A DNA stretch of 64,000 nucleotides. Origin: Candidatus Berkelbacteria bacterium (GTDB taxonomy: Bacteria > Patescibacteriota > UBA1384 > XYA2-FULL-43-10 > 1-14-0-10-43-13). Each line of letters starts with the position of its first letter. The stretch's first letter is position 1. Of this stretch, positions 49,125 to 57,337 are shown piece by piece. Under the pieces are notes generated by a model that worked only from the letters and a program-made list of their open reading frames with translations, ran no database searches and was not told the DNA's origin. The translations under genes were made by a program, and so were the position numbers. The stretch spans positions 65,132-129,131 of the forward strand of contig JBAWZC010000001.1 of the NCBI GenBank assembly GCA_037143235.1. Reading direction: 5' to 3'.

Positions 49125-49352
49125 ATGAAAAAATACCTTTTGATGTCATTTGGTATGATTGGACAGATCGGTTTTGTCGTGGCTGTCCCGATGGTCGGCC
49201 TAGGTCTCTTTGGCCGTTATCTCGACAATCAGTTCACGACCAAACCATATCTTTTCTTGCTCTGTCTGCTTATTGCCACCCTGATCGCGTTTTTCTCAGT
49301 CAAACTAATCGTTCAAAAACTGATCGAAGAAATGAACAAAAATGGAAATTAG
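49125..49352 (+). CDS. ATP synthase protein I-like small membrane protein (AtpZ/AtpI)
   Basis: Two-TM 75-aa protein immediately before atpB. Confidence 0.5.
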   Translation: MKKYLLMSFGMIGQIGFVVAVPMVGLGLFGRYLDNQFTTKPYLFLLCLLIATLIAFFSVKLIVQKLIEEMNKNGN

Positions 49353-50085
49353 CTTAGCGGCAGAAAAAATTGGCCAGATCGGCGCACTCCCGATTACCAA
49401 CTCCATGCTCACTGGTTGGATCGGCTCAGCAATTTTAATTATCTTTGCGACAGTCGCTAGCTACAAGATGAAAATCATCCCGTCGGGTGTACAAAATGTT
49501 TTTGAATATATCATCGAATTTCTCTACAACACTGCCGACTCCATCATCGGCGACGAAAAACAAACCAGAAGATATTTTCCTCTCGTCGCGACAATATTTC
49601 TCTTTATTATTTTCAACAACTGGCTCGGCCTCATCCCCGGAGTTGGTACGATCGGTTTGCACGAAACTTTTCATGGTAAAGAAATCCTCGTTCCCCTCTT
49701 TCGCTCAGCCAACGCCGATCTCAATATGACGATTGCCCTAGCCGTCATCACAGTGCTGTCGATCCAAATTTTTGGCATCGCCGCGATCGGTTTTTTCAAA
49801 TACGGCAAGAAATTCATCAATCTCTCTAGCCCAATCAACTTTTTTATTGGTATACTAGAGCTGATCGGCGAAGTTTCGAGAATGATTTCTTTCTCTTTCC
49901 GATTGTTCGGCAATGTTTTTGCCGGCGAAGTTCTGCTCGTAGTCATCGCCTTCATCGTGCCGTATATCGCCCCAATCCCCTTTTACGGTCTAGAGATCTT
50001 TGTCGGTTTCATCCAAGCACTTGTTTTCACTATGCTTGCTCTGGTTTTCATCAAATCAGCCATTACGGACCATGAAGCACACTGA
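49342..50085 (+). CDS. atpB: F0F1 ATP synthase subunit a
   Basis: RLFGNVFAGEVLL motif (essential Arg). Confidence 0.9.
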   Translation: MEISLAAEKIGQIGALPITNSMLTGWIGSAILIIFATVASYKMKIIPSGVQNVFEYIIEFLYNTADSIIGDEKQTRRYFPLVATIFLFIIFNNWLGLIPGVGTIGLHETFHGKEILVPLFRSANADLNMTIALAVITVLSIQIFGIAAIGFFKYGKKFINLSSPINFFIGILELIGEVSRMISFSFRLFGNVFAGEVLLVVIAFIVPYIAPIPFYGLEIFVGFIQALVFTMLALVFIKSAITDHEAH

Positions 50086-50094
50086 TAAATTCGA

Positions 50095-50300
50095 CCAATC
50101 TAATTGGCCGAATAGAGCCGAATGATCAATGTTCAAGTGTCAATGTTCAATTAATAATCAAGTTGATAATAAATTAATTTAAGAATTTATTAATTTACTA
50201 ATTTATTAAATTAAATACTTAGTTGATCATTGATATTTGATACTTGAACATTCACCCCAAATCAATGATTAAATGAATAAATAATTAAATATTTAATGAA
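50095..50300. repeat. AT-rich intergenic repeat family (..atgatcaa..gtcaatgttcaa../..ttgatcattga..)
   Basis: related arrays at 54782-54894 and 55262-55325. Confidence 0.6.
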
Positions 50301-50308
50301 GGAGTCTT

Positions 50309-50536
50309 ATGACAGCAGAAGGATTAGGTAGTTTGGCCGCAGCATTTGCCATCGCCGTAGGTGCGATCGGACCAGCAATCGGTATCGGTATGATCGGTGC
50401 AAAAGGCCTTGAAGCAATTGGCAGGAACCCTGAAGCCGCCGGCAAGATACAAGGGCCGATGATCTTGGCTATTGCTTTTGCCGAGGCAATCTCGATCTAC
50501 GCCTTGGTAGTCGCCCTGATCATCAAATTTGTTTAA
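50309..50536 (+). CDS. atpE: F0F1 ATP synthase subunit c
   Basis: 75-aa hairpin, Gly-rich helix 1, conserved acidic residue in helix 2. Confidence 0.9.
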
Positions 50537-50559
50537 ATAGGGACAGCTAGGAGCTAGGA

Positions 50560-50655
50560 AATTATAAACCTATTCGACTACATTCGGAAGCTTATTAGCT
50601 TAAACACTTACTAGCTTACCAGCTTAAACACTTACTAGCTTATTAGCTTAAACCA
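50560..50655. repeat. 'AGCTTAAACACTTACTAGCTTA' tandem intergenic repeat
   Basis: three tandem units; same family as 27615-27700, 28085-28175. Confidence 0.8.
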
Positions 50656-54781: not shown

Positions 54782-54894
54782 TATAGACAATGATCAAATA
54801 CCAAGGGTCAATGATCAAGTAAGTATCAAGTGAGAAATAAGTTAAGTAATGATCAAGCAAGTGGAAAACAAGAATCAATAATAGATATTTATTA

Positions 54895-55281
54895 ATGGAA
54901 ACGCAAAATCCAAAATACAATCTTCAGGAGCGAACGCTAAATTTTGGCAAGGATATAATTAGACTTTGCAAATCGATAAAATATTGTCCTGTTTCATTCA
55001 AAATTATTGACCAATTGGTTAGATCTGGCACAAGTGTCGGTGCTAATTATATGGAAGCAATAAACGGATCATCAAAAAAAGACTTCAAAAATAAATTGTT
55101 TATCTGCAAAAAAGAATCGCAAGAAACCAAGTATTGGCTAAGCATGTTAAAAGAATCTGAATCAGACAGAGCTATGGATATCACCCCTTTAATACAAGAA
55201 TGTCACGAACTAAATCTTATTTTCCAAAAATCGATAAACACAGTAGAAGAAAACTTAATACTTAATAAATTAAAAACTTAA
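54895..55281 (+). CDS. four-helix-bundle protein (23S rRNA intervening-sequence protein family)
   Basis: ..DQLVRSGTSVGANYMEA..KDF..KL.ICKKESQETKYWL typical of this family; inserted between atpG and atpD. Confidence 0.7.
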   Translation: METQNPKYNLQERTLNFGKDIIRLCKSIKYCPVSFKIIDQLVRSGTSVGANYMEAINGSSKKDFKNKLFICKKESQETKYWLSMLKESESDRAMDITPLIQECHELNLIFQKSINTVEENLILNKLKT

Positions 55282-55328
55282 TTGATCATTGACACTTGAT
55301 CATTGACCATTAAAATTTACGGAGAAAT

Positions 55329-56687
55329 ATGAACAAAGGAACCATCACTCAGATTATCGGCGCAGTCATCGATGCACGCTTCGAAGACAAATTGCCAGCA
55401 ATTTATGACGCCATCGAGTGTCAACTCGACAAGCACCGCTTAGTCTTTGAGGTCCAACAACACCTCGACGACAAAACTGTCCGCGCAGTGGCAATGTCCT
55501 CAACTGATGGTTTGCAACGCGGGCTTGCAGTGGTCTCAACTGGCGAACCGATCAAGGTCCCCGTCGGCAATGATTCTCTTGGCAGAATGTTTAATGTCAT
55601 CGGCGAGCCGATCGATGGCAAACCAGCTTCAAAATCAAAAGATTTTTATCCGATTCATCGACCTGCTCCGAGCTTTTCGGAACAGAACACGAAAACTGAG
55701 ATTTTTGAAACTGGTATCAAGGTTATCGATCTGATCGCACCAATCACCAAAGGTGGCAAAGTCGGCCTTTTCGGTGGTGCTGGGGTTGGCAAAACCGTTC
55801 TAATTACTGAACTCATTCGCAATATTGCTTCAGAACACTCTGGACTTTCGGTTTTCGCCGGCGTCGGCGAACGCACTCGGGAAGGTAATGACCTCTACAA
55901 CGAGATGAAAGAGTCGGGAGTTTTGGAAAAAACTGCTTTAGTTTTCGGCCAGATGAACGAGCCACCTGGAGCTCGAATGCGTGTCGCCCTCTCTGGACTC
56001 GCCCAAGCCGAATATTTTCGCGACCAAGGCAAAGATGTTTTGCTTTTTGTCGACAATATTTTCCGCTTCACTCAAGCCGGCTCAGAAGTTTCGACATTGC
56101 TTGGCAGAATGCCCTCTGCTGTCGGCTACCAGCCAACCTTAGCCGAAGAAATGGGTAATCTACAGGAACGCATCACTTCGACCAAAAAGGGCTCTATCAC
56201 CTCTGTACAGGCTGTTTATGTTCCCGCCGATGACCTAACCGATCCAGCCCCAGCCACAACCTTTGCCCATCTGGACTCGACGATCGTGCTAGAAAGAAGT
56301 CTAGCCGAGCTTGGTATTTATCCCGCCGTCGACCCGCTTGCTTCAAACTCAAATATTCTTGACCCAAACATTGTTGGCGAAGAACATTACAAAGTCGCCC
56401 GCGATGTTCAAAAAATCTTACAACGCTACAAGGATCTGCAAGACATTATTGCCGTTTTGGGCATGGAGGAACTTTCTGACGAGGATAAAACCGCCGTTTC
56501 CAGAGCGCGCAAAATCCAACGCTTTCTCTCTCAACCTTTCCATGTCGCCGAAGTCTTCTCTGGCATCCCAGGTGTTTATGTTTCTCTCGCTGACACAATC
56601 AAAGGTTTTAAAGAAATTATCGACGGCAAACACGATGATAAACCAGAAACGGCTTTCTATATGAAAGGCGATATCAAACAACTATAA
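55329..56687 (+). CDS. atpD: F0F1 ATP synthase subunit beta
   Basis: GGAGVGKT P-loop, DELSDED(K) motif. Confidence 0.95.
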
Positions 56688-56697
56688 AAGGAGCAAT

Positions 56698-56919
56698 ATG
56701 CCACTAACTTTAAAAGAGTATATTACAATCAATCTTGAATTATTAATATTAATAATATTTATTAGCTCCTTTCCTGTATTTTTCTGGAGCCTAAAGGATC
56801 CTCGAAAAAAAATCTGGAAATTTTGCTCTATCATCTCATTTATTCTATCGGGAATATTTTTGAGCTGGCTTGGCTTTACAATAATAAATTTCGCAATCGG
56901 TATGTCTAATTTCAATTAA
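56698..56919 (+). CDS. hypothetical small membrane protein inserted between atpD and atpC
   Basis: 73 aa, two TMs; AGGAG RBS (aaaggagcaatATG). Confidence 0.45.
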   Translation: MPLTLKEYITINLELLILIIFISSFPVFFWSLKDPRKKIWKFCSIISFILSGIFLSWLGFTIINFAIGMSNFN

Positions 56920-56920
56920 T

Positions 56921-57337
56921 ATGAACACCTTCAAATTAAAACTCATCTCCCCCTCCGGTATAGCTTACGAGGCCGAAGCTACCGAAATTACACTCCCAAC
57001 GACCGATGGCGAGATTGGCATTTTGCCAAATCACGAACCCTTGATCACCCTGATCAAAGCAGGATTGATCAAGATCAAAAACGGCCGCGAAGAAAAAGAG
57101 TTAGCAACCGAAGGCGGCATCGCTGAAATCAATAACAATGTTATCAAAATTTTGGCCGACACCGCCGAAGACACCGCCAATCTCGATGAATTAAAAATTA
57201 TGAAAGCCAAAGAGTTAGCAGAAAAACATTTAACCGAAGCCAAAAATGAAATTGAATTCGCTGATGCTTCCGCCAATCTCGAGAAACAGCTCACTATGCT
57301 CAGTTTAGCCACCAAACGCAAAAAGAAATATCGTTAG
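56921..57337 (+). CDS. atpC: F0F1 ATP synthase subunit epsilon
   Basis: beta-sandwich N-domain (KLISPSG..YEAEA) + helical C-domain. Confidence 0.85.
   Translation: MNTFKLKLISPSGIAYEAEATEITLPTTDGEIGILPNHEPLITLIKAGLIKIKNGREEKELATEGGIAEINNNVIKILADTAEDTANLDELKIMKAKELAEKHLTEAKNEIEFADASANLEKQLTMLSLATKRKKKYR

Follow-up and report, generated by a model that had tools for sequence, protein, structure and literature searches.

Three additional open reading frames in the spacers of a Candidatus Berkelbacteria ATP synthase operon, one of them bracketed by inverted repeats

The window analysed here, a 64-kb stretch of the Candidatus Berkelbacteria contig JBAWZC010000001.1, carries a complete and co-directional F1Fo ATP synthase (atp) operon on the + strand (positions 49125–57337; gene order atpI-like, B, E, F, H, A, G, D, C), with three additional + strand open reading frames (ORFs) that lie within its atpA–atpG, atpG–atpD and atpD–atpC spacers, as established from the ORF list and Pfam matches. 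This is probably an ordinary operon of the candidate phyla radiation (CPR) in which three spacers have become occupied by unrelated, lineage-restricted inserts: a passenger gene encoding a membrane-anchored protein of 224 residues (p224), a cassette of the intervening sequence (IVS) type carrying a four-helix-bundle (4HB) gene, and a small ORF of 73 codons (p73) that bridges atpD and atpC. All three inserts would ride on the transcription of the operon.

The atpA–atpG, atpG–atpD and atpD–atpC spacers measure 705, 547 and 233 nt, respectively, the corresponding medians in 64–79 other atp operons being approximately −2, 42 and 57 nt, and the inserts have a lower GC content (p224 0.39, 4HB 0.31, p73 0.28) than atpA, atpB, atpD, atpE and atpG (0.43–0.51). 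The operon was compared with a set of 167 atp-related loci (labelled with L-numbers, homologous proteins with P-numbers), in which the identical arrangement was recovered from two independent assemblies, L001 (Logan) and L167 (ENA); misassembly was therefore ruled out. SRR7053653 and ERZ27300156 also contain this genome. The nearest atpG sequences (51–75% identical) come either from unnamed metagenome contigs or from metagenome-assembled genomes (MAGs) and contigs bearing the label Saccharibacteria, Berkelbacteria or ‘Patescibacteria group’, and the window is therefore assigned to a CPR/Patescibacteria genome. The closest relative found was L083 (atpG 74–75%, atpA 85% and atpD 89% identical). 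A first-pass annotation had placed three extra ORFs between F1 subunit genes; they proved to be real, co-oriented and tightly packed with the atp genes. It had also called them accessory, a term that was not borne out in the sense of related to the ATP synthase, as none of the three matched a subunit or accessory family in Pfam or NCBIfam. Nor was any of them a general feature of the operon even among close relatives, p224 being limited to the nearest sub-clade and the 4HB gene and the small ORF being patchily distributed.

The atp spacers of this clade are better described as insertion hot spots, whose three occupants in the window are of different natures. In relatives, genes encoding GIY-YIG proteins were found in the atpA–atpG spacer of L003 and the atpG–atpD spacer of L089, the latter genome also having an ORF for a 116-aa membrane protein in its atpA–atpG spacer, while the atpA–atpG spacers of L002 and L090 contained ~850 bp of repeat-laden, ORF-poor DNA. 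The same three spacers in other clade members held 4HB genes (L004, L006), small ORFs with two hydrophobic segments, or nothing. Within the clade, the 4HB gene was restricted to the window and L004 (plus L006), and the small ORF to the window, L003, L005 and L088. A literature search on ORFs between these atp genes returned nothing relevant.

The four-helix-bundle gene and its inverted repeats

The product of the ORF between atpG and atpD is of the four-helix-bundle type, as the first-pass annotation had proposed, and matches both PF05635 (E 6e-17, 62.2 bits, cutoff 33.8) and TIGR02436 (E 1.4e-23, 83.2 bits, cutoff 24; profile positions 2–108 of 109), above the curated cutoffs and over the full length of the domain, with a PDB relative in 2RLD (E 4.6e-14). 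The gene has no Shine-Dalgarno (SD) sequence. It is flanked by an inverted repeat of the CAATGATCAA/TTGATCATTGA family (54789–54824 and 55276–55311; 36 nt, 83% complementary), the arms of which consist of tandem CAATGATCAA-type units and hold a perfect 15-bp pairing (GGTCAATGATCAAGT/ACTTGATCATTGACC) and a second 10-bp segment. The duplex of the two flanks has a calculated energy of −31.7 kcal/mol, compared with −15.2 ± 3.0 kcal/mol in dinucleotide shuffles (z = −5.5, 0/500), and the predicted minimum free energy (MFE) structure of 54770–55335 encloses the ORF in the stem. The gene is thus bounded by repeats, as expected for an inserted IVS-type element. The flanks of p224 and p73 showed no comparable complementarity in the duplex shuffle test, and the earlier suggestion that one repeat family surrounds both the 4HB gene and p73 holds for the former only, p73 being separated from atpD and atpC by 10 nt and 1 nt.

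A second, ORF-less hairpin lies between atpB and atpE (50120–50255; MFE −41.3 kcal/mol, z = −6.5, 0/200 shuffles), and its arms align with those of the 4HB gene as members of the same family (alignment A2). Across the 64 kb, the arm pattern occurred six times against an expectation of 0.27, and all matches were confined to the 4HB flanks and this hairpin. The hairpin, which lies upstream of atpE, could be a decayed or non-autonomous copy of the cassette, or a site of mRNA processing or stability for the most needed subunit. No other 4HB gene was present in the window, where tblastn returned only weak matches inside other ORFs, namely a 249-aa ORF on the − strand (62130–62879), resembling a helix-turn-helix regulator by eye only, and a giant surface protein. 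Against a phage collection, the 4HB protein matched two unannotated phage records only, giving no clear phage link, and neither the 4HB gene nor p73 had a match in PHROGs or PADLOC.

When a hidden Markov model (HMM) of 4HB sequences was run on six-frame translations of all 167 loci, 4HB genes were identified in four further lineages, each with one directly beside atpG: between atpG and atpD in L004 (49% identical) and L136, between atpA and atpG in L107, where the gene is frameshifted, and after atpG in L006. The flanks of these genes were likewise complementary (duplex z = −3.2, −5.1, −2.7 and −5.0 for L004, L006, L107 and L136, with 2, 0, 10 and 0 of 500 shuffles as stable), each pair being built from its own short tandem units. 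As the arm sequences are unrelated between lineages yet always complementary, selection on pairing is indicated. The L006 locus (3989–8875), from a Kuenenbacteria MAG, has pyrG upstream of atpG, rplK/rplA downstream of the 4HB gene, and neither atpA nor atpD within 5 kb of atpG; a second, truncated 4HB gene (9011–9244) lies ~2 kb downstream, before a comM/yifB-like gene.

We describe the unit as an IVS-type cassette in an mRNA spacer. It would be a selfish element, with an S23p/Avd-like ORF, devoid of a promoter and SD sequence of its own, in the loop that a long inverted-repeat stem closes. By analogy with the IVSs of rRNA, the arms would pair in the polycistronic RNA and RNase III would cut the stem, separating the atpB–atpG part of the message from the atpD–atpC part. 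Whether essential polycistronic mRNAs are broken up by cassettes of this kind is a question that follows. A search with an E. coli query found no RNase III gene in the 64-kb window, a result that is uninformative on the rest of the genome.

p224 and p73

The start codon of p224 (ATG, 53141–53143) abuts the stop codon of atpA (TAA, 53138–53140). The two codons are adjacent and do not overlap, so that of the junction proposed in the first-pass annotation the tightness stands, and is conserved in relatives, but the overlap does not. The AlphaFold2 model places a transmembrane (TM) helix at residues 16–38, in agreement with the annotation of the protein as membrane-anchored. A word-indexed search returned p224 itself only, but its status as a pure orphan was rejected by an exhaustive HMMER search of 1.84 billion representatives, which recovered four relatives (P0002–P0005, 32–50% identical); a profile search with the family added no members beyond these four. 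The family is real, though very rare. P0002 and P0003 align from residues 4 and 2 of p224, respectively, and share a conserved KKP motif ahead of the hydrophobic helix. The alignment of homologues from residues 2–4 favours the start at 53141 over Met17, which one gene caller (L001) had selected.

The genes for P0002 (L082) and P0003 (L083, L084) directly follow atpA, the junctions being a 3-nt gap and an overlap of 1 nt, and the L083 homologue also directly precedes atpG. Those for P0004 and P0005, two of the five family members, lie outside atp operons. Within the clade, the gene was found only in the window, L082 and L083/L084, relatives at 56–70% atpG identity being without it, and an HMM search of six-frame translations detected no remnants in the long atpA–atpG spacers of L002, L003 and L088–L091. 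The p224 proteins are 37–47% identical (37% between the window and L083) where atpA, atpG and atpD are 74–89% identical.

In the AlphaFold2 model, the TM helix is followed by a confident domain of two β-α-β-β-α-type units (predicted local distance difference test score 80 for the full protein; 88 for the domain alone, with a predicted template modelling score of 0.78). The domain has no Foldseek neighbour at E < 1e-3 in PDB or BFVD; the best PDB matches (full model E 2.4e-3, domain E 1.8e-2, TM-score ≤ 0.39) are generic ferredoxin/ACT-like resemblances. At the sequence level, p224 matched no Pfam, NCBIfam, PHROG or PADLOC family, and a weak match to ALS_ss_C (E 0.015, 15.7 bits) fell below the curated cutoff of 23.2. 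All four members with the TM helix have basic residues ahead of it, and a Cys pair is conserved in four of the five; these features suggest, with modest confidence, that the protein lies N-in/C-out, its domain exposed on the outer side of the membrane. On the most likely interpretation, p224 is not an ATP synthase subunit but a fast-evolving passenger protein of the cell envelope, the gene having presumably entered the atpA–atpG spacer in the ancestor of a small sub-clade, where it would be translated in tight coupling with atpA.

The small ORF p73 has two hydrophobic segments and a strong SD (AAGGAG) 6 nt upstream, both as first annotated, and ends 1 nt before the ATG of atpC. It was skipped by one gene caller and called by another (P0008), which was its only match among 5.8 billion proteins, and it had no Pfam or NCBIfam match at E ≤ 0.1. 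The same spacer is occupied by positional analogues of 69 aa in L003, 66 aa in L005 and 62 aa in L088. All of them begin after an SD just past the atpD stop codon, fill the spacer, and end 0–4 nt from, or overlapping, the atpC start. In all four ORFs the two hydrophobic segments surround a short polar loop, which is basic in three. Frames at least as long arose in 8 of 2000 dinucleotide shuffles of the 233-nt window spacer, and in 0, 68 and 0 of 2000 for L003, L005 and L088; with counts this low, chance is unlikely to account for the small atpD–atpC ORFs.

Homology among the four ORFs was considered and rejected, as BLASTP matches were not significant and global alignments did not exceed pattern-preserving shuffles. 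At the DNA level, the spacers are conserved at the gene boundaries only, and the ORFs of L003 and L088 share no residue-level similarity despite 79% identity in atpG. The small ORF is absent from L083, L002, L004, L089 and L090. What is conserved is an open, putatively translated frame with a hydrophobic hairpin-like layout that joins atpD to an SD-less atpC. We favour p73 as a translated bridging or coupling ORF, or else a very fast-evolving small membrane peptide. As a bridge, it would carry ribosomes from the end of atpD to the start of atpC, and its amino acid sequence would be nearly free to drift.

The inverted repeats might instead be regulatory hairpins of the host, acting as processing, stability or protein-binding sites that set subunit stoichiometry, with the 4HB ORF having landed in the loop of one of them or with the 3′ arm serving as an internal promoter for atpD–atpC. 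We treat this as a serious rival, though an unlikely one. Long genome-specific hairpins occur in atp spacers of nearly all clade members and mostly lack an ORF; the TCAATGATCAA motif was found among the 167 loci only in this genome, L002 (atpB–atpE spacer) and L083 (upstream of atpD), hence at the same two spacers, and L083 retains the sequence related to the 3′ arm upstream of atpD without having the 4HB gene. The best sigma-70-like match of the operon (TTGACA-16-TAAAAT, 55289–55316) also falls in the 3′ arm, just upstream of atpD, but it is not conserved in L083, and the promoter scan as a whole did not exceed shuffles (21 observed, 17.8 expected). Against the regulatory reading, five 4HB genes in different lineages have their own complementary flanks, as do the classical rRNA IVSs, and the stem therefore travels with, or is required by, the 4HB ORF. 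The atpG–atpD spacer of L087 is a hairpin whose arms are 79% identical to the L004 flanks after removal of the ORF, a pairing of empty and filled sites that is suggestive only. Several observations weigh against the reading of unrelated inserts that we prefer. The L087 and L004 arms are AT-rich and of low complexity, and the genomes are not sisters (atpG 59% identical); the window stem is broken by a 26-nt bulge into segments of 15 bp and 10 bp and may be a poor RNase III substrate; p224 has been held at one operon position, with a tight junction, across genomes ~25% diverged in atpG, and diverges no faster than delta (atpH 29–44% identical across the clade); and the small ORFs, with their consistent layout of two segments and a basic loop, could encode a genuine membrane protein instead of serving only as a bridge.

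Because its position and junction are conserved and its divergence does not exceed that of delta, a real ATP-synthase-linked role for p224 is possible, and one or more of the three ORFs, p224 and/or p73 being the likeliest, might encode a protein specific to the lineage that serves the CPR F1Fo enzyme as accessory subunit, assembly factor or regulator and is kept in the operon for synchronous production. The p224 gene occupies the same position in three genomes, with a junction to atpA of 0–3 nt; delta, its yardstick of divergence, belongs to the peripheral stalk; the fold weakly resembles ACT/ferredoxin-like regulatory domains; and small two-segment membrane ORFs tightly joined to atpC recur between atpD and atpC in four genomes. 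We nonetheless hold such a role to be distinctly improbable, given that neither protein resembles a known subunit or accessory family, that p224 is missing from relatives with 56–70% atpG identity and has two family members outside atp operons, that its predicted orientation would place the domain across the membrane from F1, that the closest relative, L083, has no such small ORF and even those of sister genomes are dissimilar at the residue level, and that relatives carry obviously selfish genes in these spacers. It is more improbable still that p73 is a chance open frame in an AT-rich spacer and the p224 start mis-set, leaving only the 4HB gene and a shorter p224 as real. The gene caller that skipped p73 also began p224 at Met17, and p73 has low GC and no homologue, but its shuffle tests (including those of two relatives in which no shuffle yielded such a frame), its strong SD, the way it fits exactly into the gap from the atpD stop to the atpC start, its recognition by another gene caller, and the alignment of p224 homologues from residues 2–4, including the KKP motif, all argue for real frames. 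A bolder and tentative reading, which we think unlikely to hold as a whole, is that 4HB cassettes form a general class of IVS beyond rRNA, that is, selfish hairpin-loop elements in the transcribed spacers of very highly expressed operons, recurring here beside atpG in five divergent lineages, which are excised from mRNA by RNase III and leave ORF-less hairpins behind as decayed or non-autonomous copies. Their excision would split the atp message and uncouple the expression of beta and epsilon from that of the other subunits, and p224 would be a new, CPR-specific extracytoplasmic partner of the ATP synthase.

Features of the operon and other elements of the window

The features of the operon are collected in Table 1. 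The start of atpH is uncertain (51109, 51148 or 51178) and its product short (129–152 aa; 129 aa in the L001 gene call), matching only positions 63–172 of the OSCP profile; the atpH products of relatives are likewise short and 29–44% identical.

Table 1 Coordinates of the atp operon genes and inserts in the window, with the basis of each assignment.
Feature	Coordinates	Strand	Basis or remarks
atpI-like small membrane protein, first gene of the operon	49125–49352	+	PF09527 ATPase_gene1, E 1.3e-11
atpB (subunit a)	49342–50085	+	PF00119, E 1.7e-49
ORF-less long hairpin, atpB–atpE spacer	50120–50255	+	arms ~50119–50160 and 50215–50256
atpE (subunit c)	50309–50536	+	PF00137, E 4e-17
atpF (subunit b)	50655–51143	+	PF00430, E 1e-18
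atpH (delta)	51148–51567	+	PF00213 OSCP, E 7e-9
atpA (alpha)	51593–53140	+	ORF translation; Pfam families of the identical gene in L001
p224, predicted N-terminally membrane-anchored protein with two-unit α/β domain	53141–53815	+	five-member family
atpG (gamma)	53846–54781	+	PF00231, E 4e-85
5′ inverted-repeat arm of 4HB cassette	54786–54862	+	three CAATGATCAA-type units: 54788, 54809, 54848
4HB gene, 128 aa	54895–55281	+	PF05635, TIGR02436, PDB 2RLD
3′ inverted-repeat arm of 4HB cassette	55276–55311	+	two TTGATCATTGAC units
atpD (beta)	55329–56687	+	ORF translation; Pfam families of the identical gene in L001, L167
p73, 73-aa ORF with two hydrophobic segments	56698–56919	+	AAGGAG SD; fills atpD–atpC spacer
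atpC (epsilon), without own SD	56921–57337	+	PF02823, E 5e-26

Elements with a similar habit occur elsewhere in the window. A gene of the GxxExxY / PD-(D/E)XK type (130 aa, 7839–8231, − strand; TIGR04256 E 1e-24, PF13366) lies between serS and lysS and is bracketed by a 33-nt inverted repeat (7803–8272; flank duplex z = −6.6) in a layout like that of the 4HB cassette. A GIY-YIG gene (105 aa, 36391–36708, − strand; PF01541 E 5e-16) stands beside a tRNA gene (36308–36389), not between protein-coding housekeeping genes, and is bracketed by inverted repeats; perfect 22-nt palindromic repeats (TACCTGCCTGCCGGCAGGCAGG) occur at 36135 and 36649. Inside an alaS-like ORF (22934–24826), an in-frame pair of 38-nt, 92%-complementary inverted repeats (23713–24024) looks like an insertion that is translated through, and similar in-frame repeat insertions were seen in atpG of L003 (two copies of EGTPTSRIQDLDSRSG) and L002 (‘VIPAKAGIHD’). 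A perfect 25-nt hairpin (TGTCATTCCCGCGAAGGCGGGAATC / GATTCCCGCCTTCGCGGGAATGACA) is located at 5857–5922, and members of the same palindromic family are strewn through the long atp spacers of L002 and L089. A 1935-aa ORF on the − strand (30114–35921), rich in repeated β-type segments, appears to encode a giant surface protein of a kind typical of CPR genomes.

The long atpA–atpG spacers of L002 (5157–6000) and L090 (1322–2159), both ~840 bp, have no convincing + strand ORF and no similarity to each other, and that of L090 is GC-rich (0.51) relative to its surroundings. Rfam detected only tRNAs in the window and nothing in the long spacers of relatives; elsewhere in those loci, S-adenosylmethionine (SAM) riboswitches (RF00162) were present in L003 (292–388) and L088 (196–291), on the strand opposite to the atp operons and a few kb upstream of them.

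Comparison with known elements

New here is the occurrence of a 4HB cassette of the IVS type within an operon of protein-coding genes, where such cassettes recur beside atpG. New as well are the very rare, confidently folded and membrane-anchored p224 family and a recurrent bridging ORF between atpD and atpC, both of which are candidates for ATP synthase biology specific to the lineage. In the reduced CPR genomes, even the most conserved operon would then serve as a landing pad for selfish genes. To our knowledge, the S23p/4HB family has figured for thirty years solely as the ORF within rRNA IVSs or as Avd of diversity-generating retroelements (DGRs), and it has no assigned function. The keeping of stem plus loop in an mRNA operon, beside atpG in several phyla-level lineages, offers a testable handle on this family, namely a need for the transcribed hairpin.

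The nearest known counterpart is the IVS of 23S rRNA in Coxiella burnetii, Leptospira and Brucella, which encodes a protein of the same family (PF05635/TIGR02436) in the loop of a stem formed by terminal repeats (PMC4990558). In Coxiella, the IVS is 428–444 nt long with a 28-bp terminal inverted-repeat stem and the S23p ORF in its loop, and has tandem heptamers upstream, a poor ribosome-binding site and an RNase III cut in the stem (PMC4990558); insertions in CPR rRNA also carry S23p-type ORFs (bioRxiv 10.1101/2024.02.27.582315). The window cassette resembles these elements in its tandem-repeat arms, its ORF without a good ribosome-binding site, its length of ~0.4–0.5 kb and its location in a highly transcribed operon, and its S23p/4HB ORF is likewise enclosed by stem-forming terminal inverted repeats. 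However, the rRNA IVSs sit in helix 25 or 45, whereas the window cassette lies between atpG and atpD of an mRNA operon, and no rRNA was detected in the window by Rfam, so that location in a 23S or 16S rRNA helix does not apply to it. The window cassette also differs in its interrupted stem and in having an ORF-less copy of its arms in another spacer of the same operon.

The 4HB/S23p family is also related to Avd of the DGRs, with which it shares a homologous four-helix-bundle fold (PDB 4DWL; PMC10053308). The 4HB gene was rejected as a DGR component, since it lies between atpG and atpD with neither a reverse transcriptase nor a template/variable repeat pair adjoining it, and the inverted arms are its only repeats. 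Set against transposable elements and miniature inverted-repeat transposable elements (MITEs), the cassette shows terminal inverted repeats and a second, ORF-less copy (50120–50255); no direct-repeat duplication was evident at the arm ends, and no transposase and no further copies were found in the 64 kb. The selfish GIY-YIG (PF01541) and GxxExxY / PD-(D/E)XK (TIGR04256, PF13366) genes share its habit, being ~93–130 aa in length, bracketed by inverted repeats and placed near housekeeping genes, yet these nucleases have folds unrelated to 4HB, and we know of no nuclease motif in the 4HB family.

Small hydrophobic proteins are familiar companions of the ATP synthase genes: AtpI/AtpZ (PF09527) is encoded upstream of atpB, and DUF1146/YwzB downstream of atpC in Firmicutes. 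Like these, p73 would be a small hydrophobic product of an atp operon, and the window has its own AtpI-like gene (49125–49352); p73, however, matches no such family, lies between atpD and atpC, and has analogues without sequence similarity. For p224, the order of secondary-structure elements in the modelled domain, with its two β-α-β-β-α-type units, is compatible with the βαββαβ arrangement of ACT and ferredoxin-like domains, from which it differs in its predicted membrane anchor, its probably extracytoplasmic location and the lack of a significant match in sequence or structure.

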